From a virus (lineage: Duplodnaviria; Heunggongvirae; Uroviricota; Caudoviricetes), in the IMG/VR virus record IMGVR_UViG_3300033067_001111, positions 64,001 to 101,517 of that record: 37,517 nucleotides of DNA; one strand, written 5' to 3'. The notes under the pieces were generated by a model. The model did no database searches. It had not been told where the DNA came from and saw only the letters and a program-made list of their open reading frames with translations. Position numbers and translations under genes: made by a program. How positions within the stretch are numbered: the stretch's first letter is position 1; every line of letters starts with the position of its first letter. Shown here in pieces: positions 39 through 35,500 of this stretch.

Positions 39-46
39 CCTCTATT
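39..46 (+). promoter_or_regulatory. CCTCTATT motif, putative phage late promoter
   Basis: Exact copy right after the TAA at 36-38 and 6 nt before GTG 53; GAGG at 48-51. Confidence 0.55.
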
Positions 47-52
47 TGAGGC

Positions 53-13265: not shown

Positions 13266-14810
13266 ATGTCGGCTGAATTTCCTGAAATTACGTATCGCGC
13301 ACCGATCCTTCTACTAGGATCCACCTCCGAGCTCCGACCTGACATCAGCATGCAGTGGAACTTGGATGTTGATACCACCCAGTTCAGCACGCCCTCCACC
13401 CTTGCCAGTTTGGTAATGTTGATCAATGAGACAACCAGCTTGCAAATTGAGCTGGAATACGTCTCGTACTCAACTCAAAACCGCGTCCTAACATTGCGGC
13501 CTACCGTGGACATTCCGCGCAGTACACTGTACACGGTGTATGTAGATAGTAAGGTGTTAGCCACTAGCGGGCGTAAGAGCAAACAGGCTTTCCGCTGGCA
13601 GTTTGAGACCGCTGCTGGGTCGTTGGACGCTCCTGGTGTTACGGATCCAGCTGACTACAGTGTACAGAGTACGTTTCCCACCTTCTCCTGGACAGCTGCT
13701 GGTACTGGTACTATAACCTACCTGCTGCAGATAGATGATCGCTGGGATTTTGGATCTGTAGACTACCAGACTACTACTCAGAGTCTGAGTATCAGCCCAA
13801 CTCCTGGTCTGCCCGCAGAGAACACGTATTACTGGAGAGTACTTTCCTATTCGGCTACGGCCACAGGCTCCTGGTCGGATACCAAACAGTTTTATTACGG
13901 AACGCCACGCCAGGCTACGGCCGAGACCCGACAGACTTGGTATGAGGCTGATGACTTTGGTATCGCTCGACAGCATTGGACTAATGGTCTAAGTAACCAA
14001 GGTGGTTTTCCAACCCTTAAACTTACGTTTACCGCCGTACCAAACACAGATTATCAATCATATCTCAGTATGTGGCGACAAGCTATTAGTCCTCGTAATG
14101 ATACGACATCAACGTATCAGTGGGTAGCTGTGGCAGGATCCTGGACCCTTACAGGTAGCAGTATCCAGTTTACACCCGGAGAGGCATTGGTACCAAATAA
14201 CCGGTATGAAATGCGTGTAGATCGGTATCTTTCCAGTGTGGATGGCGTGGCATTGGGCAAGGACTACGTCCTGTACTTCACTTCAGCCTACAGCCCTATG
14301 TACGCAGATCTAAGAGCTGTTCGCAGCCGATTCCTGAGCGCGGAACAGAACATACCAGACGACCTCATTAACTACTTTATCTATCGCGCATCGCTAGAGG
14401 CTAATGCTCGGTACTACATGTATCTGCAGGGTCAGCCATGGGCGTATGGAGATCAACCAACTGAGGGCACAGTACGTGACAGTGCTGCACTCAAGTCCTT
14501 TGGTGTGGGACGCTGGGTTGAGGCCGCTGCCACACTGTCTCTGCTCCAGAGCATCTTGTATGAAAATCTGCGGTTGGTGGACAGCGAACGACAGTTGGGA
14601 GACTACACGTTCAAGTTGGGTCCTGGCTTTATTAAGGCCATGGAACTAGCTATGAAGCAAGCTGCTGAAGACCTAGATTACTGGGAAGACTACCTGTCGG
14701 TCAGCGACCAGTCTCGATCTACAACCCGATCCTATTACTGGAATCCAGCTAACCGAGACTACGATGCTAGCATTGCCGACCTTGAAGCACGAAGGGATAA
14801 CTTGTTCTAA
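13266..14810 (+). CDS. Neck/head-tail adaptor with Ig-like (Big_5/SbsA-type) and FN3-like domains
   Basis: LTLRPTVDIPRSTLYTVYV and IQFTPGEALVPNNRYEMRV (Ig-like); PTFSW...YLLQID...YYWRV...GSWS (FN3-like); helical C-terminus YSPMYADLRAVR...IPDDLINYFIYRAS; first gene after the capsid. Confidence 0.7.
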   Translation: MSAEFPEITYRAPILLLGSTSELRPDISMQWNLDVDTTQFSTPSTLASLVMLINETTSLQIELEYVSYSTQNRVLTLRPTVDIPRSTLYTVYVDSKVLATSGRKSKQAFRWQFETAAGSLDAPGVTDPADYSVQSTFPTFSWTAAGTGTITYLLQIDDRWDFGSVDYQTTTQSLSISPTPGLPAENTYYWRVLSYSATATGSWSDTKQFYYGTPRQATAETRQTWYEADDFGIARQHWTNGLSNQGGFPTLKLTFTAVPNTDYQSYLSMWRQAISPRNDTTSTYQWVAVAGSWTLTGSSIQFTPGEALVPNNRYEMRVDRYLSSVDGVALGKDYVLYFTSAYSPMYADLRAVRSRFLSAEQNIPDDLINYFIYRASLEANARYYMYLQGQPWAYGDQPTEGTVRDSAALKSFGVGRWVEAAATLSLLQSILYENLRLVDSERQLGDYTFKLGPGFIKAMELAMKQAAEDLDYWEDYLSVSDQSRSTTRSYYWNPANRDYDASIADLEARRDNLF

Positions 14811-16866: not shown

Positions 16867-17762
16867 TGAGTAATCCTATCATCCCATCGCCCGAGCATTC
16901 GGACGCATACCCAAGCCCCTACGATCTGCCCAAGTTAATTTGGGACAAGATTGAATCGTACTTTCATAAGTACCGGGTAGAAGTGCGTGAATCCAAGCCT
17001 CAGTCTGGCGTTGAGGGACCTGTGATAGTCTGGGATATTTTGAGCCGGGTACCTGGCCGAGATAATAGCAGTGCCCATGGTCGTGGACCATCCCACAGCA
17101 GTTTCCGCACCATCACGGTAGACGGTAAGGTCATTGAAGAACTATTCCAGATCCACACTGTAACCTACAGATATAAGATCTACAGCGTTAGTTCTGAGAT
17201 AGCTAACCAAATTGCTTGGGATCTAGAGCGGTTGCTACCCCAGGGTGCGGGTATAGCTGGGCGCCAGGATAATATCCCAGGTATCCAACTCAATTTCTTA
17301 CGCCAAACCTCTCAGGAAGAGGATCGTACGAGTATGACTCAGGACGATTTGGTGGTAAGGAACCTCCTATTTACAGGACAAGTACCAGTCTTCTACCGAA
17401 GAGAGCTCCCAACCATGAGAGCTTTGATGGTACACACACATGTGGGCCGAGTGTTGACTTCAACAGGACGCCAAACACGTTCATCGTCTGATTCCGATTA
17501 TTACATCGATGTGGATAGCGGCCAAACCGTCGTAGGTATATTCGCCGTATTCAAATTAGCGTGCGCCACCGTGCAGGAGGATTCATGCCTTACGCCGGGA
17601 GCCGACTACAAAGTGCTAAAAGATGATAATGGAACCCTCTATATACAGTGGGATGATACGTACGGGAATGTACCGGCCTTAGGCCAGGATTTTCGGGTGG
17701 AATACTTTGTTTCTGCCACTCGTACCACCTACCCAGACCTGACTCAGCCGCCCTCTATTTAG
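16866..17762 (+). CDS. Putative tail terminator/completion protein with an extra C-terminal beta domain
   Basis: 298 aa; strand-helix pattern TYRYKIYSVSSEIANQIAWDLERLL fits tail-terminator folds; lies directly before the sheath. Confidence 0.5.
   Translation: MSNPIIPSPEHSDAYPSPYDLPKLIWDKIESYFHKYRVEVRESKPQSGVEGPVIVWDILSRVPGRDNSSAHGRGPSHSSFRTITVDGKVIEELFQIHTVTYRYKIYSVSSEIANQIAWDLERLLPQGAGIAGRQDNIPGIQLNFLRQTSQEEDRTSMTQDDLVVRNLLFTGQVPVFYRRELPTMRALMVHTHVGRVLTSTGRQTRSSSDSDYYIDVDSGQTVVGIFAVFKLACATVQEDSCLTPGADYKVLKDDNGTLYIQWDDTYGNVPALGQDFRVEYFVSATRTTYPDLTQPPSI
17752..17759 (+). promoter_or_regulatory. CCTCTATT motif upstream of the tail sheath
   Basis: Exact copy in the last codons of the upstream gene; AGGAG at 17791-17795; ATG 17803. 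Confidence 0.55.
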
Positions 17763-23614: not shown

Positions 23615-23622
23615 CCTCTATT
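23615..23622 (+). promoter_or_regulatory. CCTCTATT motif upstream of the tape-measure-position gene
   Basis: Exact copy immediately after TAA 23612-23614; ATG 23642. Confidence 0.6.
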
Positions 23623-23641
23623 TTAGGGTCAAGGCCAGTAC

Positions 23642-26600
23642 ATGAGCTCTTATCACCGAGACCACGAACATTCTTTTATCTCCAAGGCCGCGGGTTTGGC
23701 TGCCATTGGAACGTTAATCGGTGTTGGTCTGACCAAGGGCGCCCCGCTCATAGGTCGTGCGGCTGAAGGTGTACTGGGCTCCAAGTTCGGCAATACCATA
23801 CTCAACAGCCTAGCTGATTTCGTACGCGTTCCCGTACAGGGAACCCAGCAGATGGCGGCAGAATTGTTCTCGGCTGAGGGCAATGTTATCATCCGGGGAA
23901 GTGAGGCTGTAGAGCGCGGAGTTCGTACAGCATTGGTCAGCGAACGGCGAGCGCAGACTATCATGACAAGTCTGCGGGGGTTTACGGATAACACTACCGC
24001 CTTTGATTCCCAGGAATTCCAGCAGGCCATGCGCCAGGCTATGGGCAGAGTGACCTCGGCTGAGGACCCTAGCCGAATACCAGCAGGATTTCACACTCTT
24101 GAGGGGTTAGAGCGTTTCAACCAGATAGCTAAAACCCACGGCGTTACATTCAACTTTGAGAGCCTGGCCCAGCAACATGCCCACCTCATGGACTTTGTGA
24201 GGGAAGCTGGATCCCAGTCCGTATCTCAGGATGAAGTACAGGCCTACCTGCGGAAGTCCGATGTACAGGAGCAGATCTATGGAGCTATTTCCCAGAGCCG
24301 TAAGGCCCATGCTGATAGCGCGAGGGCTCTGTACGAACGCTTTACACCACCCACAAACTCCAGTGCACGACGCCAGATCAAGTACCGGGACCTGTGGTAT
24401 ACTGCGGACAAGGGATTAAATCCCAGCTTTGATAAATCAGTGCACGACGCAGTGGTTGCCAGAATCCAACAGGATATGAAAATCCCAGAGGATCGTGCAC
24501 GGCTATTTGTACAGCAGCATATAGATCAGGCACGTGAGGGACTGGAAAAGGCATTTGGTAATGCTGAGTCCAGCCTGCACCAGCAAGTCCTGTGGAATGA
24601 TTTCCTTAACTCCAATACGGGAATGACGATCTCGGCTGGGGGCAAGGTAGTAAACTGGCACCGACCACAGTGGGCAGCTAGTGAGCTACTGGATAAGACG
24701 CTGGAGAACGTCCAGATTCCGTTGGTGCCCTACCACTTTAATGTCAATCTGAAGAGTCTGCGTATTGCCCCCAAGGTCCGTGACCTGGCAAAGGGTCTGG
24801 GATTGGTATCAGACAACCCAGAGATCAGACGTTATCTGGATCGTGCGTGGAAAGGTAAGACCGTTAACTACGGTAGCACACATCTTGTGGCGGTTGGAGA
24901 CCAGATGTTGGCTATTGGCCAGGAGAGTGCCACCCACCTAAACGGACGATTTGCGGTCTTTGATGCACGCAACAGTAGCATGCTGCGGCGCCTGGGTGAG
25001 GCGCGATCTGAAAATACCACGGACATACTAAAAGACCTGTGGCGGCTAAAGCCTGACAGCGGTATGAGCCGTTTCCGAGAACTGCTGTATGCGCACAGTC
25101 CGCGGTTTGCAACTATACCTCCACCCTCAGCCCATGGAGGACTTGTTGTTCGCGGTAAATCTCCGGTCGGAGGATTGTTAGCTAATTACCTGTATGGTAA
25201 GGGTATTGTAGATCCGAGAAAGATCCACCCTCAGTTGCTGGCGGAGGCCATGGAGCACTATGCGCCAAGGGAAATGGTGTCGGCCGAAACCCATTACTCT
25301 CTACTTTCATCCCTAGTCCGAGAGAGCGGTCAGAATCTGACGGACAGTGCTCAGGTGTTGAAGGCTTGGGCTGATGCAGGCCGTGGTTCTATGCCGGTCT
25401 TTGGCGGCCGTCAAGGTGGTCAGTCAGGAACTGGTGTTCTGTATCAGATTTACAAGAACATTGACCGGCCAGATGTTGTGGTCAGAGAATTATTCCGTCC
25501 ACTTGGTGAGCACCAGGGTAAATCCCTGTTGGAGTTAACGTCGGAGGCCAAGGAAGCATTTAACCCCCAGCTGTATCAGGCATTGATGTCATCCAAGGTC
25601 GGGTACAAAGGCCTGTTGATGGCGGGCAAGGGTGAAGGACATTTTCTCCACCACGTTAGCACGGCGTTAAAGGGTGAGCAAGGCCTGAGCCAGATGATGG
25701 AGCGATTGCAGAGAGGTCTGCTCAGTCAGATGGTATCAGACATGGGTGCTGAGCGCTATGGTGGATACGAAGCACTGAGCGAGGAAATTCTCCGCGTTCA
25801 TAACATGCGGGCTGAGGGTGTGAGCTTAACTGATATCTTGAAGCAGGCACCCACTGAGCATCCTGCTGCACGCTTTGTACAGGACCTGAGAGATAAACTG
25901 GGTGTGTCTACGGGTGATGGACTGGACAGCTTCCTAGACCGATTGATCCATGAGACTGCAGGGGGCTCAAAAGTACATACGGGGCGAGCTGGTGAACTAG
26001 CTAGTTTGCTACTTGACAAGGGCCAGGTTCTGAACATATCGGACAATAACTTGATTCGGGCTAAGGTTTTGAACCAGCTTAGAGTTGGATTGGAGAGTTG
26101 GCCGCTGCCCGTTGAAGTCCGAAACCTACATCTTAGATCATATATGTTTGAGCGGGATGGTACAGCTGATTGGTTGACGGACGCCGTTCGCCAACGATTT
26201 AATGCATTCCGGCCATTCCACCCACAGGATCTGGGTTCTAATCCTCTGTATGATCCACACACCTACAGTATTCCGCTAAATCCTGAGACGGATCTGGCAT
26301 CTATCCTCACCAATCCCCTGGGCGTTGTTCGTGACCAGTTCAAGAACGCATTGGGTGTGGGGGAATTTCTTCGGGCTCAGGTGGACCCAGAAAAATCATA
26401 TGGCATTGGTGCCATGTACCAGCACCTTCTGGGCATCATACCGCAGTCCGTAGCGGAGAACGTTGGCTTGGGTCTGCCCGCAGCAGATTTGAGTACACCA
26501 CTGCGCACCACATTTGCCTGGTGGGCAAAGCGCGTTCTACCCCTGTACGTAGGTATTGAACTGTACAAGAACATGAATGCCAATGCCCACACACTGGGCT

Positions 26601-29600
26601 TACCTGGCGTTGACGATCTGGGCGCAAACCTGGTGGCAAATGTCAATCGGGTCGGGGCCAGCGTCAAAGACTTTTTGGGAGTGACCAGTACATCCCAACA
26701 CCTAATACGACAGTTTCCTGGTCTGGATCAGTACTTTCATCCCCGGTCCAAAGAGGAGTACGACAAGTACCTGTTCTACGGTGAGGAAGAGGTAAGAGAG
26801 GGTCGTGGGTGGTTCACGGGTTCGCGCGATACCCTGCCTGGTGGACGTATCAACTACGTACGCCCCAACTTCTTCCGTCGCTGGCACAGTCACTGGACTG
26901 AGGCGGATAACGTTGATATCTCCAATCCCGAGTACAGCTGGTTACCGTCCATAACTCACCCACTGTCCCCACTCAAGAGATTAGTGCATCCCAACTGGTT
27001 TGTGGATAAGCACAAGAGTGACAGACCGTACGAGGCGGGGGGCTTGGTGGGAGCGGGAGAGAATCCAGGAGCCTACCTGATATCCAATGCGGCAAATGCT
27101 GATGGGTCCTTTAACGTGGAGGCGGGCATTGGTGGACCGTATCCCACAAGCATGCACACAACGTGGCATCAGGATGTGGTGCTGGGAACTATAGGCTCCA
27201 GTCTTACAGGTACGCTGGGTGTGGGAGCTACTGGTACTGGGGGTAGTGGTGGAGGAGGCCGAGGGCCGGGTACTGAGCGTGTGACGTACGAGCTGCACAA
27301 GGAAATGGCTGTCAGCCATGTTCATGCAGCGGGTAGTATTCTGGACTGGACTGCGCACAAGATTAACAACGTGCGGAGTAAAGCGGGGTTGGTTGGTGCA
27401 TTCCTGAACAAAATCCCTGGCTTCCCGGATGAGGGAGGCGTGCATCGTCAAAACTGGAGAGCAGCAATCAGTAATGATCGGTTGCTGTTTGGCGGTCAGT
27501 ATGGAGAACTTACTGGGTCCCTGGGTGAATTTGCTCGCCGATTGATTAACCCCAACTACATCAATCCCAACGACTATAATACGTTGCCCAATAACCAGCC
27601 TAGCTGGATGCCTAGCAAGTTCCGGCGAGGAGACCCATACCTTAGAACTCCAGGTGGTGAATACAATGTGCCAGGCGATGCATATGAGAGACTTAATCCG
27701 TGGATAGCGCCGCTCAAAGTTCGTGGTTCGTCTCTTGGCGGATCTGTTGATGAGATTATCCAGAAATGGCTGTACCCAACAGAGCCCCTTGGAGACTCCA
27801 GCGCTGAGGACATTGTGGACTTTGGATCCAGAGCCCACAAACTAATTCAGAGACAGCTTAGTGCTAGGGGTGTTCTGGTGGGTGCTGAGGTCCCGATCTA
27901 CGACGAGCAGCACAATATCAGCGGTACGATTGACGCCGTCATTCGTGGACAGAATGGTGCTGAGATCTGGGATATTAAAACCCAGGGTGGGAAGCACTGG
28001 GGAGAAGTCCCAGAAAAGTATTTGGATCAGGTCACTGCGTACATGGCGATCATGGGTATTCCTCGTGGTGGACTGGCCTTCGTCAACAGAGATGATCCAG
28101 ATCAAGTACGTTTTGTGCGCTTTGGGTTTGACCCAGATAGATGGCAGCGAGTGCTAGGCCGTATTGAAGAAGCCCGGTCCAAGGTTGAGGGTATGGTGCA
28201 GAGGGGCGAAATCAGCCCGTTTGAAACCTATGATCTGCTGGCGCGTATTGATGTGCTGTCCAAGGTCGCACCAGATAGCGCGGAATTCCGGGAACTAGTG
28301 GAGTACGCGGGACACAGTGGGGGCTTTGGTGGATTTGAACAACAGCGTTATGCAGAAGCCATACAGCGTGCAAAGCACCTGAGAGAGAACTACAGACTGT
28401 ATCCTAACCGCCATGTGCAGACTGAGACTCGTAGACTGAGGGTGGAGGGCATTACAGATCAGGGTGAGATCATTACGCCCTATGGTGTAGTAAGTTTGGC
28501 AGGTGTCAAGTGGGATGCGCAGGCCTTTGGACATGAAGATCCAGAAGACGTTCTGGCCAAGTTTGGAGTGCACGTGGGAGACACGTTGCCAATGACAATG
28601 ATCAAGGGTCAGTTTGATCCAGATCTTCAGACAGACCTGAACATCCAGGTGCAAGTGGGTCGCCTAAATCAAAGGCTCATAAACAGCGTGTATGCAGGCC
28701 CAGACCAGGATAGTACGCATCCGTTGGCAGTAGGGCCCACAGGGGCAGGTAGCGGCCTTCCTGGGTACTTGTGGGAGCACCTAGTCCATGCAGACAACTT
28801 GGTCACCAACAAGTTCATGCGCGTACGGACGGCGTTAGAGCAACTGGAGCGTGGAGAGATCTACGGAACAGATGATTTTAGATGGTCTCACATCTTCAGC
28901 AGCCTGATGGTTCCCACCATACATTCGGTAGTTAGCAAGAATCCGTTAGCCGCTGGGTTAAAGGGCATGACCATTGGCGCCATATTCTTGCGTACGCAGA
29001 AGGGGAGAAAGACTGGGGCGTTAATCGGTGCGGCGGCAGGTGTCATGCTGAGCACCACACGCGCCCTGTACGAAGCTATATCCGGCCACAAGTGGAAGCC
29101 CCGCCGTGTACGGAAGCAAGAGGATTTTGATGCATACTGGGATACCATGGAGTATGTTAAGTACGCGACCATGGCTGAGGCCGCAAAGAAGAAGGCTGCT
29201 GAGCAGGAGGGTGTGGACATCAACCAGTTGGAATCTGGTGAGAAAAGAGAGTACGTACACCTAGGTCCATGGGGTGCTCTGGCCATTCACGCAGAGAGAA
29301 AAGCCTCCCAGACTATGTACGGCTTTGACCAGCTAAAAGGCTCGCTACAACAGGCGTTGCAGACCCTCCCACAGCGCCACAGACAACTGGCGGAATCCAT
29401 TATTGACACTGGCTCTATTAGTGAAAAGCGAAGATTCTATGATCTGATCTCCAACAGTGAGCGGCGGGTGTTGGGAAGATTCTTGGGTGTGGACGAGAGT
29501 TCGTTGCCCGAAAAACCATCCTTGCACAAGTTCTTTGCCCACCATTATCTGCCAAATGTGGACTGGGCTGGCTGGTCTGAGAACGTGGATTTTGATGATC

Positions 29601-29899
29601 TTCGCACCAGATCTGGTGAGGCTGAAAACATGAAAGTTGAACGCCCTAATAGAAATCGTGTAGAACGAGCCAGAGCCTATACTAACGGTATTCCGATTCC
29701 AAAGATGCGAGCACATACCCCCGCACGAATCAAGTCTACCATCAACCGACTTATGTCCCGTGGACATTTTAGTCAAATTAATGCACAATATGTGACGCGG
29801 CCAGCTTCGCGAAACGTTATAAATGTCAAGTTTGATTTGCATCACGACCAGACGGACGAGTTGATAGCGCAGTCCCAGTCTCAGTTGTATGGAAATTAA
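23642..29899 (+). CDS. Giant tape-measure-position virion protein with a PD-(D/E)XK nuclease domain and an SNase/OB-like domain
   Basis: 2085 aa after the chaperones; hydrophobic Gly/Ala segments near the N-terminus and around residues 1770-1810; nuclease motifs GSRAH, AEVP, ISGTID, WDIKT, QVTAY. The tape-measure role is inferred from synteny. Confidence 0.7.
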   Translation: MSSYHRDHEHSFISKAAGLAAIGTLIGVGLTKGAPLIGRAAEGVLGSKFGNTILNSLADFVRVPVQGTQQMAAELFSAEGNVIIRGSEAVERGVRTALVSERRAQTIMTSLRGFTDNTTAFDSQEFQQAMRQAMGRVTSAEDPSRIPAGFHTLEGLERFNQIAKTHGVTFNFESLAQQHAHLMDFVREAGSQSVSQDEVQAYLRKSDVQEQIYGAISQSRKAHADSARALYERFTPPTNSSARRQIKYRDLWYTADKGLNPSFDKSVHDAVVARIQQDMKIPEDRARLFVQQHIDQAREGLEKAFGNAESSLHQQVLWNDFLNSNTGMTISAGGKVVNWHRPQWAASELLDKTLENVQIPLVPYHFNVNLKSLRIAPKVRDLAKGLGLVSDNPEIRRYLDRAWKGKTVNYGSTHLVAVGDQMLAIGQESATHLNGRFAVFDARNSSMLRRLGEARSENTTDILKDLWRLKPDSGMSRFRELLYAHSPRFATIPPPSAHGGLVVRGKSPVGGLLANYLYGKGIVDPRKIHPQLLAEAMEHYAPREMVSAETHYSLLSSLVRESGQNLTDSAQVLKAWADAGRGSMPVFGGRQGGQSGTGVLYQIYKNIDRPDVVVRELFRPLGEHQGKSLLELTSEAKEAFNPQLYQALMSSKVGYKGLLMAGKGEGHFLHHVSTALKGEQGLSQMMERLQRGLLSQMVSDMGAERYGGYEALSEEILRVHNMRAEGVSLTDILKQAPTEHPAARFVQDLRDKLGVSTGDGLDSFLDRLIHETAGGSKVHTGRAGELASLLLDKGQVLNISDNNLIRAKVLNQLRVGLESWPLPVEVRNLHLRSYMFERDGTADWLTDAVRQRFNAFRPFHPQDLGSNPLYDPHTYSIPLNPETDLASILTNPLGVVRDQFKNALGVGEFLRAQVDPEKSYGIGAMYQHLLGIIPQSVAENVGLGLPAADLSTPLRTTFAWWAKRVLPLYVGIELYKNMNANAHTLGLPGVDDLGANLVANVNRVGASVKDFLGVTSTSQHLIRQFPGLDQYFHPRSKEEYDKYLFYGEEEVREGRGWFTGSRDTLPGGRINYVRPNFFRRWHSHWTEADNVDISNPEYSWLPSITHPLSPLKRLVHPNWFVDKHKSDRPYEAGGLVGAGENPGAYLISNAANADGSFNVEAGIGGPYPTSMHTTWHQDVVLGTIGSSLTGTLGVGATGTGGSGGGGRGPGTERVTYELHKEMAVSHVHAAGSILDWTAHKINNVRSKAGLVGAFLNKIPGFPDEGGVHRQNWRAAISNDRLLFGGQYGELTGSLGEFARRLINPNYINPNDYNTLPNNQPSWMPSKFRRGDPYLRTPGGEYNVPGDAYERLNPWIAPLKVRGSSLGGSVDEIIQKWLYPTEPLGDSSAEDIVDFGSRAHKLIQRQLSARGVLVGAEVPIYDEQHNISGTIDAVIRGQNGAEIWDIKTQGGKHWGEVPEKYLDQVTAYMAIMGIPRGGLAFVNRDDPDQVRFVRFGFDPDRWQRVLGRIEEARSKVEGMVQRGEISPFETYDLLARIDVLSKVAPDSAEFRELVEYAGHSGGFGGFEQQRYAEAIQRAKHLRENYRLYPNRHVQTETRRLRVEGITDQGEIITPYGVVSLAGVKWDAQAFGHEDPEDVLAKFGVHVGDTLPMTMIKGQFDPDLQTDLNIQVQVGRLNQRLINSVYAGPDQDSTHPLAVGPTGAGSGLPGYLWEHLVHADNLVTNKFMRVRTALEQLERGEIYGTDDFRWSHIFSSLMVPTIHSVVSKNPLAAGLKGMTIGAIFLRTQKGRKTGALIGAAAGVMLSTTRALYEAISGHKWKPRRVRKQEDFDAYWDTMEYVKYATMAEAAKKKAAEQEGVDINQLESGEKREYVHLGPWGALAIHAERKASQTMYGFDQLKGSLQQALQTLPQRHRQLAESIIDTGSISEKRRFYDLISNSERRVLGRFLGVDESSLPEKPSLHKFFAHHYLPNVDWAGWSENVDFDDLRTRSGEAENMKVERPNRNRVERARAYTNGIPIPKMRAHTPARIKSTINRLMSRGHFSQINAQYVTRPASRNVINVKFDLHHDQTDELIAQSQSQLYGN

Positions 29900-29921
29900 C
29901 CTTGCGTGATTGGAGAATAAT

Positions 29922-31040
29922 ATGACAAACCTAGTACCAGTTGAGTACAAGAAACTTGCTACCAGTATGGGCATTCCTGCTAACATCTATCAAGATTTCT
30001 ATACGCGAAAGACCAACAACAAGCCAGATGTGAGAGACCTAGTTTCCAAACTGTCTTTGACCGTCTACCCATCTGAGGCCGCTGCTAAGCAGGCGTTGAA
30101 CAGATTGTGGGTAGAGTACAACAAGTTGAACTTGGATGCACCACACATCCCAGTAGCCGTAAGCGCTAAGGTCATTGCCCAAGAGCCACAGACCCCCGCA
30201 ACGTATTTGGCAGAAGCCCGTAACGGGCTTGCACGGCTGATTGGTGAGCTGGACGTCAATGTTGCATACCGCGGCAAGAAGACCATGGCAGACCGGATTG
30301 CGGTGGGTGGAGATATTCACGGTATCTATGCAGATGAGCAGGCGTTCGCCAAGTTCTGCGCTGATCCCGCTGAGACCGCCATCGTCTGTGGTGACTTTAT
30401 TGACTTCCTGGCAGTGACCCGTCACCGACAGAATATTGATGCGGTTACCACCCGTGCTGAACTCGCTGATGCCCGGGCAAAGGCCGAGCACTTGGCTCGC
30501 AGTTTCAAGACCATTTATTACGTACGCGGTAATCACGACAAGCGACCACTCAAGAGATTGCAGGATATTGCACCTCAGTTGTTGCCGTTGTTGATTGATC
30601 CTGTAGATTTGATTACTGCCGACCTGCCTAACTTCAAGCGCCTGTCATGGACTATTCCGAACACGGCACCCACCATTCAGTTTGGTGAGGATTACGAGGC
30701 AGATTACTTCGGTCAGTATGGTGATGTCATTGCCGGACACTTTGAGACGTTCATGGGTGTTGATGCCGTTCGCCAGACTGCAAAGTGGTTGTCTGACTGG
30801 GATTATGTACTGCGGTTACCCAATAAGCCGCGAGTAATTCTCCAGGCACATACCCACAATCTTGGTATTACGTTTACGGGCAAGGGCCAGTTGTTGGTAA
30901 ATACTGGATGCCTGTGCCGAAACATGCCATATCAATTTGACAACGCTGGAAAATACACTCCTAATGTTCAGGGCTACATCGCGCTCTATCAGCGAGATGG
31001 TGTTACAGACCTGAACAAGACAGAAGTTATTGCCCTGTAG
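29922..31040 (+). CDS. Calcineurin-like metallophosphoesterase with an N-terminal extension (372 aa)
   Basis: All five motifs visible: GDIHG, GDFID, GNHD, AGH, AHTH; GGAG at 29912-29915 supports ATG 29922. Confidence 0.88.
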   Translation: MTNLVPVEYKKLATSMGIPANIYQDFYTRKTNNKPDVRDLVSKLSLTVYPSEAAAKQALNRLWVEYNKLNLDAPHIPVAVSAKVIAQEPQTPATYLAEARNGLARLIGELDVNVAYRGKKTMADRIAVGGDIHGIYADEQAFAKFCADPAETAIVCGDFIDFLAVTRHRQNIDAVTTRAELADARAKAEHLARSFKTIYYVRGNHDKRPLKRLQDIAPQLLPLLIDPVDLITADLPNFKRLSWTIPNTAPTIQFGEDYEADYFGQYGDVIAGHFETFMGVDAVRQTAKWLSDWDYVLRLPNKPRVILQAHTHNLGITFTGKGQLLVNTGCLCRNMPYQFDNAGKYTPNVQGYIALYQRDGVTDLNKTEVIAL

Positions 31041-31052
31041 TCATACTCCAGA

Positions 31053-31073
31053 GGGGGCCCTAGTCAGGCCCCC
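31053..31073 (+). terminator. GC hairpin after the phosphoesterase, possible weak terminator
   Basis: GGGGGCC / GGCCCCC with loop CTAGTCA; only a short, offset T-run follows. Confidence 0.4.
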
Positions 31074-31111
31074 CACGCTTTACACGTATATTACACTCTA
31101 GGTATCCAAAC

Positions 31112-31477
31112 ATGAAGTACGGAAAATTACAGTTTGCCCCACCCCAAACCTTTAAGGAAGATAAGGCGGCGTTGAAAGACCTGCTGGAGAAGGGAGAGAT
31201 TGACGATCAGTTGTACAGGGAGAAGATGCGAGATCTCAACCGAGATTTCTTGTTGTTCATTGCCCGTACAAATAGCATGAATCCTGGAAAGGGACGTAAG
31301 GGTGCATCCATCGGAAGCTGGAAGGCAGACTTTGCAAAGGCCAAGACCATGGAGATTGCACAGAGCACGACCGCCAACATGGCGGCCGAACAACTGGCTG
31401 AGCAGGAAGTGGAAGACCACATTGCCGCGATCAAAAATGTTTTGCCCACGAACGAGAAGTTGGAGACTAATGAGTAA
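31112..31477 (+). CDS. Hypothetical protein with a SHOCT-like motif
   Basis: 121 aa; ALKDLLEKGEIDDQLYREKMRDL resembles the SHOCT helix-turn-helix pattern. Confidence 0.65.
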   Translation: MKYGKLQFAPPQTFKEDKAALKDLLEKGEIDDQLYREKMRDLNRDFLLFIARTNSMNPGKGRKGASIGSWKADFAKAKTMEIAQSTTANMAAEQLAEQEVEDHIAAIKNVLPTNEKLETNE

Positions 31478-31721
31478 GGAAGCGGAGGACATGTGGAAGG
31501 AATTGACGGGGAGGGATAAAATCCCTCCTCACATCCAGAAGCTTCTGGATCATCTACAGTCAGTGGACGATATCAACCCAGAAGAATATAGTACTTCGGT
31601 GACAAAGCATGACCTTGAGGAAACCATTCCCCGGGTCGTTGCTGAGATTCTAGCTGGTACGCCAACGGTCAGTAACTATCCTAAAGTAATCTCCCAGATC
31701 CTGAAAGAACCACAAGCTTAG
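31470..31721 (+). CDS. Hypothetical protein (83 aa)
   Basis: ATG 31470 with GGAG at 31462-31465, overlapping the upstream stop; the track's 31302 start would overlap the previous gene heavily. Confidence 0.65.
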   Translation: MSKEAEDMWKELTGRDKIPPHIQKLLDHLQSVDDINPEEYSTSVTKHDLEETIPRVVAEILAGTPTVSNYPKVISQILKEPQA

Positions 31722-31742
31722 TTCGGGATGACAGACCGAACC

Positions 31743-31773
31743 CAGGGGCACTCAATTTGAGTGCCCCTGTTTT
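31743..31773 (+). terminator. Rho-independent terminator
   Basis: CAGGGGCACTCA / TGAGTGCCCCTG perfect 12-bp stem, then TTTT. Confidence 0.8.
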
Positions 31774-31782
31774 GTAAACGGG

Positions 31783-31790
31783 CCTCTATT
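31783..31790 (+). promoter_or_regulatory. CCTCTATT motif after the terminator, 7 nt before ATG 31798 (no SD, possibly leaderless)
   Basis: Exact copy; only TTCGTAC lies between it and the ATG. Confidence 0.6.
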
Positions 31791-31797
31791 TTCGTAC

Positions 31798-32514
31798 ATG
31801 GATAAGCATGCTCCGTTTGAACCTGGCGACTACCTCTATAATAATATGAGTGGCATTTACATTATTGTAAATCGGATAAATGGTAGATGTTATATTGGTT
31901 CAGCGTCACGCATCAGAACTAGATTTGCTGGACACAAATATTTACTAAGACGTAACAAGCATCACTGTACTCCTTTACAAAATGCGTGGAATAAATACAC
32001 TGAGGATTCGTTTGATTTTGAGGTTCTAGAGTATTGCGACCCTTCTAAACTTCTAGAACGAGAGCAACTATACTTAGACAGCATCACAGGACTCTACAAC
32101 GTTGCTGAGTTTGCTTTTTCTAGGCTTGGAATTATCCAAGGCCCAAAAGCTGTTTATAAGGATTATCCAGCTCTCAGATCTCCTGAGGGAGAAGTTTATG
32201 GGCCAGCTACAAATCTGAAGAAGTTTTGTGAGATTCATAGTTTATCATATAAACTAATGAATCAAGTAATCCATAGAACTAAGTGCTCACATAAAGGGTG
32301 GACACTAGCAGATCCAACCATTCCGAAGACTAGATCTACTCCCAAAAGAACAGAGCCTTTTCCACCCCTAAAAGGACCTCAGGATCAGTTAGTTACTGAT
32401 TTATACGATGCTACTCAGTTTTGTAAAGAGAATGCACTTGATACAAGCTCTTTTTACAAAATGCTTGCAGGCCAGTACCAACACACAAAGGGATGGCGGT
32501 TAGCAAATGGATAA
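31798..32514 (+). mobile_element. Free-standing GIY-YIG homing endonuclease gene
   Basis: SGIYIIVN...CYIGSA...R...H...LLEREQ...YN catalytic domain; two C-terminal FC...L...KGW DNA-binding repeats; about 35% GC in two hand-counted 60-nt lines versus about 50% just downstream. Confidence 0.92.
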
Positions 32515-35500
32515 CCATGCTGGGTTTCAGCCCGGGGATGTTGTACGAGACAGACGTACGGCTAAAGACTACTTGATTGAAGCGGTAGTGGGCGGGGCTG
32601 TTGCTGGTGTTACGCTGTACAAGTTGGTGGGGGTATTGGATGATCGCATCCAGGAAGTATGGTCCCAGGGTGATGAGCAGTTTAGAGACGAGTTTCTAAC
32701 CGTAGCGCGAAACACTCGCCATGTTGATCCCAACCTAGTCCTCAGTCAGTTACGTGAGGACTTTACCAATATCGTGGGTCAGGATACCATACTTCGTGCC
32801 CATATGAATCGGGACGAGAACACTGTACTCCGTGACATGGTGTATGTGAGTCGGGAGTCAGATGAAGAGTCTTTTTCCCAGGGAATAGTTGAACTCACCA
32901 GAGCCCTGGTCCAGGGCGGTAGCCGCCCTAACAAGGCCCAAGTAAGTCAGTTACTTAGGGATACGGCGGGCGAAAACGTTAGTGAAGAGTTTATTGCGGA
33001 CCTCACTGAACGCATCAATAACATGATGGTATCGGCCAGTATCCAGTCTGGTAACCGACGGCTCATGGGACCAGGAGAATACCAGGACCTACTGCAGTTT
33101 ACACGGAATGAATTCTCTCTTGCCCGTGAAGCTGGGTTGTTTTCCACCCGTCGTGCAGCAGAGGACCTTCCTAGATTATCCCGACTGGAGGAGAAGACTA
33201 TAGGCCGGATCTTTGGCGACAGAGAGTTTGGGACTATTAACTTTGGTTGGCCAGAACTGGATCAGACGGAGAACGGAATGGAGCGTGCACTGGTCGTGTA
33301 CCGTGAACTGTTCAAGGAGCTCAGGGGCAAACCCATGAGCCAGAAGCTACAGTCTATGATCCGTGCTGATTTCAACTACAGCCGCAAAATGGCTTCACTC
33401 GGCCGAGCAACTCCCCACACACAACTGTTGCTTAAATACATGAAGGTGGACGAAGCTAAGCGGTTGACTGATTTTGTACCCACATCTCAGGTCCAGAACA
33501 TTGGGCGGGCGGCTGTGGTTGAAGCCCGAGCTGCTGCATCTGGCAGAGGCCCGTATGGGTATCTGGGAAATGTAGTGAGCCGGACCACAGGTATTCGCCG
33601 CCCCCGAACAGGACAGTACTTTAGACCCGCTGTGAACTGGGAGTACGTGGCGAAGAGCCAGCAGATGCATATACCTGGCACCAGACGAAACCAGATTAAA
33701 GCCATGCTGTCTGTGGACATGGAAACGTTCATGGATGAATTGGTGGGCCGCAACCCCTTCACAATGGTCGGCAGCCAGAATGCACCCATCTACAAGCTGA
33801 CGGAGAAGCGACAGTATCGGGCTTTGGCCGAGGCCCTTGGTGCTGGTGCTCACAATACGGGCAGCGTGCTTATGGACAGAAATCAACTGCGAAGATTGAT
33901 GGAGCAGAAGGCTGCGGGTGAAGTCCTGGACTTGACAGATATCATCCACACTACGGGCACCATACAACGAGCAATGCCCTCAGACATCAGAGAGCAGATA
34001 AAGCGCGCTCATTACTCGGGCAATAACATGTTGACGGGCGAGCGTGTAGCTGAAGTCTACTTGAATACCAAGGAGGTCAATGCCGTGATGTCTGGTAGCA
34101 GAAAGAAGTTGGGCACGACCGAAAGTGAGTTGTTTGGACACATGTTGGCGGATCCCGGTGAGGGTCAGTTCCGATTGTGGATGGTTCACCACAAATCTGG
34201 GGAAACCTATGGAAGTAATAAGCTTGATGAAGTCCTTAAGCACATGGAGACTAACGCCAATGATATTGAGCCCAGTGGACTGCACGTAGCTGATGTCGGT
34301 AAGTTCTATGCTGAGCTCCAGCAGTTGACGGATGTGCCCAGAAACAAACCTGTGTTATTCCCCGATCAACACTATAACTTGCTGTCCATTGAGGGAATCC
34401 GCGCTGCGGCCGAGAACCAGGGTGGTAATATTGGATTGGAGTCCAAGAACTTTACACGAGCTGAAGTCAAGTCCCTGGCCCATTCGTCTATGGTTAACCA
34501 GAAATCACAGATCGCGGATAAGGTACAGCGGCAGAAGATCGCTATTGCCCTGATCAAGAACCCACAGGAAGAGCAAGAGACCAAGATCATTGCCACAAAT
34601 CTCAGCACGTCCATAGAGCGTCAGACAGAGTTGGTACGAAGACTGTATGATGAGGGTGGGTTGATTGTTGATATTGAAACCCGCAAGCAATTAGACGGTC
34701 AATGGCTCATGAGAGAACTGGGATATGCTGAGGACCATATGAATGGAGTTCAACATACCTTTGAACTCAAGGCGGGCGATGTTACGGAGAAGAAAGTCCG
34801 TGCATTTATTGACTTGGGTAAGCGCATCAAGAAAGCAGCAGTCGTTGGCTCCCAAACAGATTACGACCCTGAGCACTTGTTGGGAGAACTTGAGGTATGG
34901 CGGCGCCAGTTGGCCGACCGCCCTGAGCTCCTAGCTCAGTTGAATGAGGCTGCCGCAGCCTTTAACGATGCCCGAGAAAGTAAATGGCTTGACCTCACAG
35001 TACTGCACCAGCTGCGTACGGGAGAAACTGCTAACCAAGTAAACCAAGAGTATCTGGCACTTAAGTTCTTGACGGGCAAGGATCGGATTGAGACCCACCA
35101 GGCGTTGGCTGACGTCCAGCAAGCATGGAAGCTAGTACACCAAGCACGACCCAATGTCCTGGCCAATCTAGACCATCTGCAGTTGGGTACCAATCAGGAA
35201 CAGGTTATTAACTCAAATCTGTTTATGTTGGAGACAGATCCCCGAGGCATGAGATTTGGACGTCTCATGCAGGTTGAGGACATTGCCACGCCATTGGGTG
35301 GTGGGGCCGTTGCTCAGATTCGTGAGTATATTCCCAAGCTCAAAGGAGGGCGCTACACTTTTGAGCGAGGTTTGGCATCGTACGAAGAGCGTGCGGATAG
35401 CGTTCACGCGCTTGTTGGTATGCTGGGGCGTAAGGGAGTTGCCACCAGTCCAAGCACATTCCACCAGGTAGCAGACCGTTGGGAGAACGCTCTTGCCGAG

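Follow-up and report, generated by a model that had tools for sequence, protein, structure and literature searches.

How can a homing endonuclease gene lie within the coding sequence of a conserved phage gene, with neither intron nor intein, and leave that gene whole? The question is raised by the last 37.5 kb of a 101.5-kb viral contig from IMG/VR (record IMGVR_UViG_3300033067_001111, Caudoviricetes), a stretch of 37,517 nt that I will call the window and to which positions refer unless another contig is named. In the window an open reading frame (ORF) for a GIY-YIG endonuclease (31798-32514, 238 aa, beginning MDKHAPFEPGD) runs into a gene of 1648 aa (32507-37453, beginning MDNHAGFQPGD), which I will refer to as the giant gene; these, the other parts of the insertion and the signals just upstream of it are on the plus strand. 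An original prediction, made before any database search, held that the endonuclease had entered the giant gene after codon 11, that the first 11 codons had been duplicated, that the duplicate both ends the endonuclease in another frame and, recoded, restores the gene, and that no intron is involved. The answer reached here is that the window very probably contains a 676-nt endonuclease cassette in the coding sequence of the giant gene, which is kept whole by a duplicate start. Self-immunity of the element, the specificity of its cleavage, its use of the captured start, translational coupling of the two genes and essentiality of the giant gene are what I infer from the sequence beyond this.

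The insertion and the two gene starts

The giant gene lies in a virion structural block of myovirus type, of which the window carries terminase, portal, major head and sheath genes, and it is recognized as the conserved host gene of the insertion by its ORF, by family matches and by gene order. A profile search over 1.8 billion representatives found 42 cluster representatives of the giant-protein family at E ≤ 0.001, most of them 1500-1800 aa in length, the closest homologues being P0003 (62% identity over the first 500 residues) and P0004 (52%). The 1648-aa protein has no match in Pfam, PHROGs or PDB sequences, nuclease families included. The best-conserved stretch of the N-terminal region in the family alignment is PGD-x-VRDR-KT-x-x-DY, and the residues that precede it vary in both length and sequence. 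The insert (676 nt, 31831-32506) falls between codons 11 and 12 of the giant gene, PGD|VVRDR, and siting in the most conserved stretch of a coding sequence is typical of homing endonucleases.

On either side of the insert there is a start and 11 codons. The first, copy A (31798-31830), appears to be the ancestral start of the giant gene and now forms the N-terminus of the endonuclease ORF; it is continuous with conserved upstream sequence. The second, copy B (32507-32539), is the spare that completes the giant gene, running into VVRDR as in all relatives, and its ATG aligns with the starts of the family members in an alignment of N-termini. The two copies are identical at 25/33 nt and at 8/11 aa. 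The probability of at least 25 matches in 33, in a single start-to-start comparison at this base composition, is 1.5e-9, so the predicted duplication of an 11-codon N-terminus stands. The endonuclease ORF ends with GCA AAT GGA TAA, and this TAA (32512-32514) lies inside ATGGATAA (32507-32514), its T being the third base of codon 2 of the giant gene and its two A's opening codon 3. Relative to the endonuclease, the giant gene is in the +1 frame; the duplicated start does supply the endonuclease with its stop in another frame. The conserved C-terminal KGWRLA of the endonuclease family is coded up to 32505, 1 nt before the ATG of copy B, and the native stop of the endonuclease has thus been replaced by one in codons 2-3 of the giant gene.

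The relatives used for comparison were contigs L003-L007, which encode five members of the giant-protein family. The same order of genes is found in all five: a gene of ~2080 aa, a metallophosphoesterase gene, a small gene (110-148 aa) and the giant gene, with no endonuclease at the giant-gene start in any of them. Upstream of the giant gene they have a terminator-like hairpin, a CTCTATTT-type motif and a start codon, after which ~11 codons ending in PGD (PGS in L004) are joined directly to VVRDR (TVRDR in L007). The window aligns with these relatives from the hairpin to 31830, the similarity ending exactly after GAC, and it aligns again from the ATG at 32507, continuing beyond codon 11. Identity to the upstream region of L003 is 74% for the 25 nt that precede 31798, as compared to 12% for the 25 nt that precede 32507, and the region upstream of copy A can be taken as the ancestral one. 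The original prediction had proposed an alignment with relatives free of the endonuclease as its main check. The five return motif, start, ~11 codons and then VVRDR directly, both flanks joining exactly at codon 11/12 as expected from an insertion after codon 11, and no relative was found in which the flanks fail to join.

Base composition shifts sharply at both edges of the insert, which identifies 31831-32506 as the foreign DNA. The GC content is 20% in a linker of 15 nt at the left edge (31831-31845, encoding YLYNN and containing a second CCTCTAT at 31833-31839) and 39% in the endonuclease core (GC3 30%), as compared to 52% in copy A, 55% in copy B, 52% in the giant gene (GC3 55%) and 51% in the genome. 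The endonuclease is therefore present or absent at one site among relatives that share a gene order, and where present it has a foreign composition (39% vs 51% GC).

The homing endonuclease proper runs from M17 to the stop (31846-32514) and is identified as such by Pfam (PF01541), by PHROG homing-endonuclease families, by alignment and by fold. Its catalytic domain occupies 31846-32079, and two repeated C-terminal modules lie at ~32170-32307 and ~32365-32502. The sequence MSGIY at 31846 is the canonical endonuclease start, where the original prediction had placed it, since the Pfam domain covers residues 17-94 (E 1.6e-8), residues 1-9 are disordered in the AlphaFold model (pLDDT 84.6, with the first strand at 19-25) and only ~5-6 residues precede GIY in the homologues that are closest at full length. 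Judged by an alignment of 14 homologues, the endonuclease has every invariant residue (Y21, Y32, G34, H46, E89, N101) as well as R42, which is nearly invariant. By fold it is closest to the catalytic domain of I-TevI (TM 0.82-0.87, rmsd 1.4-2.6, 29-31% identity). The model continues with a disordered linker (residues 104-120) and strand-helix-helix-strand modules (125-170 and 190-235), a candidate DNA-binding region common to the homologues, for which there is no Pfam match. On these features the endonuclease looks functional. It is encoded by the only GIY-YIG gene within the contig, and its closest relatives in the databases are 31-35% identical.

Which of the two copies is native? Copy A matches P0003 (encoded by L003) at 10/11 amino acids and copy B at 7/11; the nucleotide matches are 23/33 and 20/33 to L003, and 24/33 and 19/33 to L005. 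These figures are suggestive, and only suggestive, of copy A being the native copy and copy B the incoming one, the same direction as in the mitochondrial cases considered below. If copy B is foreign, it would have come from a related phage and not from the original source of the endonuclease, because its GC content is that of a phage. The prediction that a recoded 5' end restores the gene is correct in that copy B completes the giant gene, but the three amino-acid changes mean that the recoding is not purely synonymous.

I also considered whether the differences between the copies betray recoding driven by immunity, as 7 of the 8 cluster within 18 nt beside the junction. Differences between pairs of orthologues are distributed alike, and the argument was dropped. 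A motif of the I-TevI type (CNNNG) that might separate copy A from copy B was sought by eye; both copies hold several, and the motif is uninformative. Sliding-window identity of the giant protein with P0003, P0004 and P0040 gave no recombination boundary or co-conversion tract.

A separate observation concerns L005, the contig that encodes P0040. Between its metallophosphoesterase gene and its small gene there is an extra ORF of 187 aa (L005:1905-2468), an N-terminally truncated GIY-YIG protein that is 41% identical to residues 49-112 of the window endonuclease and has neither the GIY nor the YIG motif. To all appearances this is an endonuclease in decay, situated one intergenic gap away.

A parallel case and the known systems

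A GIY-YIG homologue that is 34% identical to the window endonuclease, P0008, is encoded on a 135-kb contig of another phage (L029:2008-3268), where its gene is inserted ~12 codons before the stop of a gene of 167 aa. The ATG of P0008 lies inside the last codons of that upstream gene, which ends FKNFCDTTQYEQ, and the conserved KGWTL at the end of the endonuclease continues into YKNFCDQEQYQQ, followed by a stop. L029 therefore has two ends of the one gene, identical at 25/39 nt (P ~9e-7). In close relatives free of the endonuclease (L033), the 167-aa gene ends FKNFCDQEQYQQ and the next gene follows directly. The remnant fused to the endonuclease matches this native end at 35/39 nt (the gene body is 78% identical), whereas the end that completes the 167-aa gene matches it at only 25/39 and resembles a variant in P0084, another endonuclease-free relative. 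L029 is thus a mirror, at a 3' end, of the layout in the window, with a clear native remnant and a divergent working end, and it shows that entry into a gene end with a spare copy has happened repeatedly in this clade. The context of another homologue, P0006, consists of convergent genes and shows no duplicated gene end.

The closest known counterparts are the mORF "gene hybrids" of fungal mitochondria, described in atp6 of Allomyces macrogynus and in atp6, atp9, cox2 and nad3 of Glomus sp. (PMC3630166). In these hybrids the C-terminus that has been inserted moves along with the endonuclease ORF, and the native one is left downstream of it, in some cases in phase (PMC3630166). Beside endonuclease ORFs, partial duplications of atp6 and cob have also been reported (PMC6279837). 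The window shares with these hybrids an endonuclease ORF inside a protein-coding gene without intron or intein, and a gene end present twice, where one copy makes the gene complete and the second persists as a remnant, in phase with the endonuclease. A further trait of the hybrids, that the remnant is the copy resembling the native sequence, is clear in L029 (35/39 vs 25/39); in the window the direction agrees, but 33 nt are too short to establish it. The hybrids differ from the window in that they involve mostly the 3' ends of mitochondrial genes, and the window case concerns a phage gene, at its 5' end. Because the insertion is at a 5' end, the window endonuclease inherits a promoter-like motif and a start codon, and the gene must restart at the overlap of stop and start. 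The window element works like an mORF hybrid, then, as a variant and not as a member of that group.

I-TevI, encoded in the td group I intron of phage T4, has the same catalytic fold as the window endonuclease and the same arrangement of N-terminal nuclease, flexible linker and C-terminal region, and both are situated at a conserved coding site. I-TevI, however, sits in a self-splicing intron that restores its gene at the level of RNA and that provides immunity by separating the binding and cleavage sites, whereas the window case has no intron and its gene is restored at the level of DNA by a duplicate start. The C-terminal modules of the window endonuclease are also not recognizably those of I-TevI, there being no Pfam match.

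T4-like phages also contain free-standing endonucleases of the Seg and Mob groups, and insertions of the mobE type split genes. The Seg and Mob endonucleases ("intronless homing") resemble the window case as phage endonuclease genes without an intron, whose proposed mode of spread is to cut a conserved gene close by in relatives and to be co-converted along with flanking DNA. Unlike the window gene, they and the mobE-type insertions either are intergenic or have split a gene into two polypeptides; the window endonuclease is inside a coding sequence, fused to the old start of a gene that remains whole. A survey of the neighborhoods of phage endonucleases describes free-standing genes, inteins and introns, not a layout with a duplicate start (PMC10055350). 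Searches of full-text literature found no paper describing such a layout in a phage, an absence that is no proof.

Expression signals and neighboring genes

The upstream transcription unit appears to be closed by a hairpin with a T-tail, like that of an intrinsic terminator (31743-31779, a 12-pair stem with 8 G-C pairs, followed by TTTTG), and L003, L004 and L005 have a hairpin in the corresponding position. Behind it lies CCTCTATTTT (31783-31792), a promoter-like motif that L003-L007 have conserved ahead of their giant gene and that is the native upstream element of this gene. At no more than one mismatch, CCTCTATTTT has 8 matches in the window, all on the plus strand and five of them a short way before gene starts, vs 1.7 expected, and on the rest of the contig it is found on the other strand only. 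It occurs upstream of the gene starts at 53, 17803, 23642 and 31798, with a related CCTCTATT before the start at 13266, and some of these sites sit just after terminator-like hairpins. Motifs of the CCTCTATTT type are at window positions 39-48, 17752-17761, 23615-23624 and 31783-31792 and on the minus strand of the contig (G000) at 10524, 25913, 32020 and 62716, their orientation following that of the genes on both arms of the contig. Its excess, its position before gene starts and its conservation in relatives make CCTCTATTTT a good candidate for a phage promoter element. Only 5-8 nt separate the motif from some of the start codons, a hint of messages that may be leaderless or nearly so.

What this means for the two genes follows from their position. 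The endonuclease ORF is directly behind the motif and there is no terminator-like site between that ORF and copy B, so that the giant gene is most likely the second cistron of the transcript, with ribosomes restarting on it at the ATGGATAA overlap. It is plausible that the endonuclease uses the captured start. The linker holds a second copy of the motif core, CCTCTATAAT (31833-31842), 3 nt before the internal ATG.

Just upstream of the hairpin, an ORF of 83 aa (31470-31721, beginning MSKEAEDMW) extends to the terminator and shares its first 8 nt with the end of the 121-aa small gene (ATG at 31470, TAA at 31475-31477). It is without a family match. The relatives have one small gene (110-148 aa) at this position, and its variable acidic tail may correspond to the 83-aa ORF. 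Further upstream is the gene for a protein of 2085 aa (23642-29899), in which PHROG matches (E 4e-14 to 4e-7) identify residues 1374-1516 as a PD-(D/E)XK nuclease region, of Cas4/RecE type. In L003 (10947-16947) and L004 (10932-16932) the giant gene is followed by a gene of 497-542 aa, with an ART-PolyVal domain in L004, and then by one of ~2800-3100 aa. Both of these genes are missing from the contig, since the window stops 64 nt past the stop of the giant gene; CheckV estimates the completeness of the contig at 52%.

Proposed working, origin and significance of the cassette

How might such a cassette work? The native terminator and promoter-like motif, together with the start codon, remain joined to copy A, which is in frame with the endonuclease; copy B, on the far side of the endonuclease, restores an uninterrupted giant gene. 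Transcription would proceed from the giant gene's own upstream motif. Ribosomes would begin at the old ATG, possibly also at the internal ATG (31846), producing the endonuclease, then stop inside ATGGATAA and restart on the giant gene by translational coupling. During co-infection the enzyme would cut the uninterrupted site coding for PGD/VVRDR in relatives free of the endonuclease, and with the upstream region plus copy A as one repair arm and the gene body as the other, linker, endonuclease and copy B would be copied into the cut genome. Copy B departs from the native sequence at 8 positions, and these changes would shield the carrier against the enzyme that it encodes and would also prevent the 33-nt repeats from recombining the cassette out.

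Taken at its fullest, this would amount to a "cut-and-rescue" drive of natural origin that secures its own retention: a spare start resistant to cleavage would move jointly with the endonuclease among phages that have the giant gene, and since the endonuclease would be the first cistron behind the only promoter-like motif, its nonsense decay or imprecise loss would lower or abolish expression of the giant gene, selection for which would thereby keep the selfish gene. I put this forward tentatively. The mirror case in L029 suggests that the GIY-YIG clade habitually enters gene ends in this manner, in phages and in mitochondria.

Several considerations weigh against the reading of the window as a mobile cassette with a duplicate start, working in the manner described. 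Cleavage, homing and expression of the element are themselves predictions. Copy B together with the sequence downstream re-creates a complete target-like site, so that immunity would rest wholly on the substitutions in copy B. The comparison of the two copies with the relatives, over 33 nt, is within noise, the body of the giant gene itself being ~65% identical to that of L003. The endonuclease may not depend on the captured start, since it may have, or may once have had, a signal of its own (CCTCTATAAT), and fusion of copy A to the endonuclease in frame would be expected by chance about 1 time in 4. Finally, no near-identical allele free of the endonuclease and no second carrier of the cassette was found, and mobility at this site is therefore inferred from one insertion. 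A distant blastn search of 31000-33600 against GenBank phages gave one weak GIY-YIG match and no relative, and scans of IMG/VR and JGI metagenome contigs for the giant gene (by protein, by alignment and by the degenerate pattern PGDxVRDRKT) gave no true relative, the 18 matches to the pattern all proving false once translated.

It is possible instead, though I would hold to it no more than tentatively, that the layout is the scar of a single repair event. In a donor, an endonuclease gene standing free in the 5' gap, after the CCTCTAT motif and before the ATG of the giant gene, would have directed the cutting of a naive relative at codon 11; the right end would then have copied the donor leftwards (copy B, endonuclease, motif), and the left end would have been joined without homology, duplicating the interval from motif to cut. 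In favor of this account, the duplicated unit seems to take in the promoter-like motif, as CCTCTAT is present at 31783-31789 and once more in the linker, where the chance of finding a given 7-mer in 15 nt is ~1e-3, and the endonuclease is placed after the second motif and before the second ATG; the GC content of copy B, moreover, is that of a phage, unlike the insert. The account also accords with the fact that free-standing endonuclease genes of phages, such as the Seg and Mob genes of T4, are normally intergenic and cut at a distance. No donor with such a layout was found, however, and the L029 case, from the same clade at another locus, argues for a recurrent mode over an accident. The structure once formed would in any event be copied as a unit, so that this account concerns the origin of the cassette more than its present working.

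Less likely is that the insertion is a fossil, the endonuclease no longer homing, the layout tolerated and the ORF kept open only because its translation feeds the giant gene. There is a single known carrier genome, the truncated GIY-YIG remnant in the next intergenic gap of L005 shows that endonucleases decay locally, and the two copies differ at 8/33 positions, so that the event was not recent if they were initially identical. Against this, the invariant catalytic residues and both C-terminal modules are intact in a confident model, and the composition of the insert is still strongly foreign.

Could the insert instead be removed from the message or skipped in translation, as a group I intron or a bypass element, with the giant protein made from the ATG at 31798? 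The sole point in favor is that codons 1-11 do precede the insert, and I regard the idea as highly improbable. Among sequencing runs, a search for RNA sets that contain the region listed none. An Rfam scan of 31000-33500 at E ≤ 10 gave two chance-level matches, neither of them an intron, and the endonuclease ORF fills all 676 nt of the insert, leaving no room for a ribozyme core; the layout is free of introns, as originally claimed. Copy B, whose start aligns with those of the family, makes removal needless. A bypass would have to span 709 nt, far in excess of known ribosomal bypasses, such as that of T4 gene 60, which skips 50 nt. An intein was ruled out by the stop at 32512-32514 and by the giant gene resuming in the +1 frame from its own ATG.

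Although the window is a metagenome-assembled viral contig, a false joining of two strains at the repeat is just as improbable, since an independent Logan assembly covers 29900-33574 with zero differences, the repeats are only 76% identical with exact runs of no more than 8 nt and so cannot mislead an assembler, and each of the two junctions is functional and keeps its frame. An identical contig of 167 nt, inside the endonuclease, comes from a river metagenome of a different study. The contigs of four runs over the region include no joint that skips the insert and no near-identical variant free of the endonuclease, bearing in mind that contigs cannot prove absence.

The cassette represents a third way for an endonuclease to reside in a gene: it needs no intron or intein and can occupy a conserved coding sequence of a phage because it comes with a substitute for the gene end. 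The layout links the biology of phage endonucleases to the mORF hybrids of fungal mitochondria and resembles engineered cleave-and-rescue drives. For annotation, a short N- or C-terminal similarity between an endonuclease and its neighbor flags such insertions and gives the exact homing site. If the proposed coupling is true, the expression of a large gene in the virion block has been rewired by the element, and the usual decay of selfish endonucleases may be slowed.

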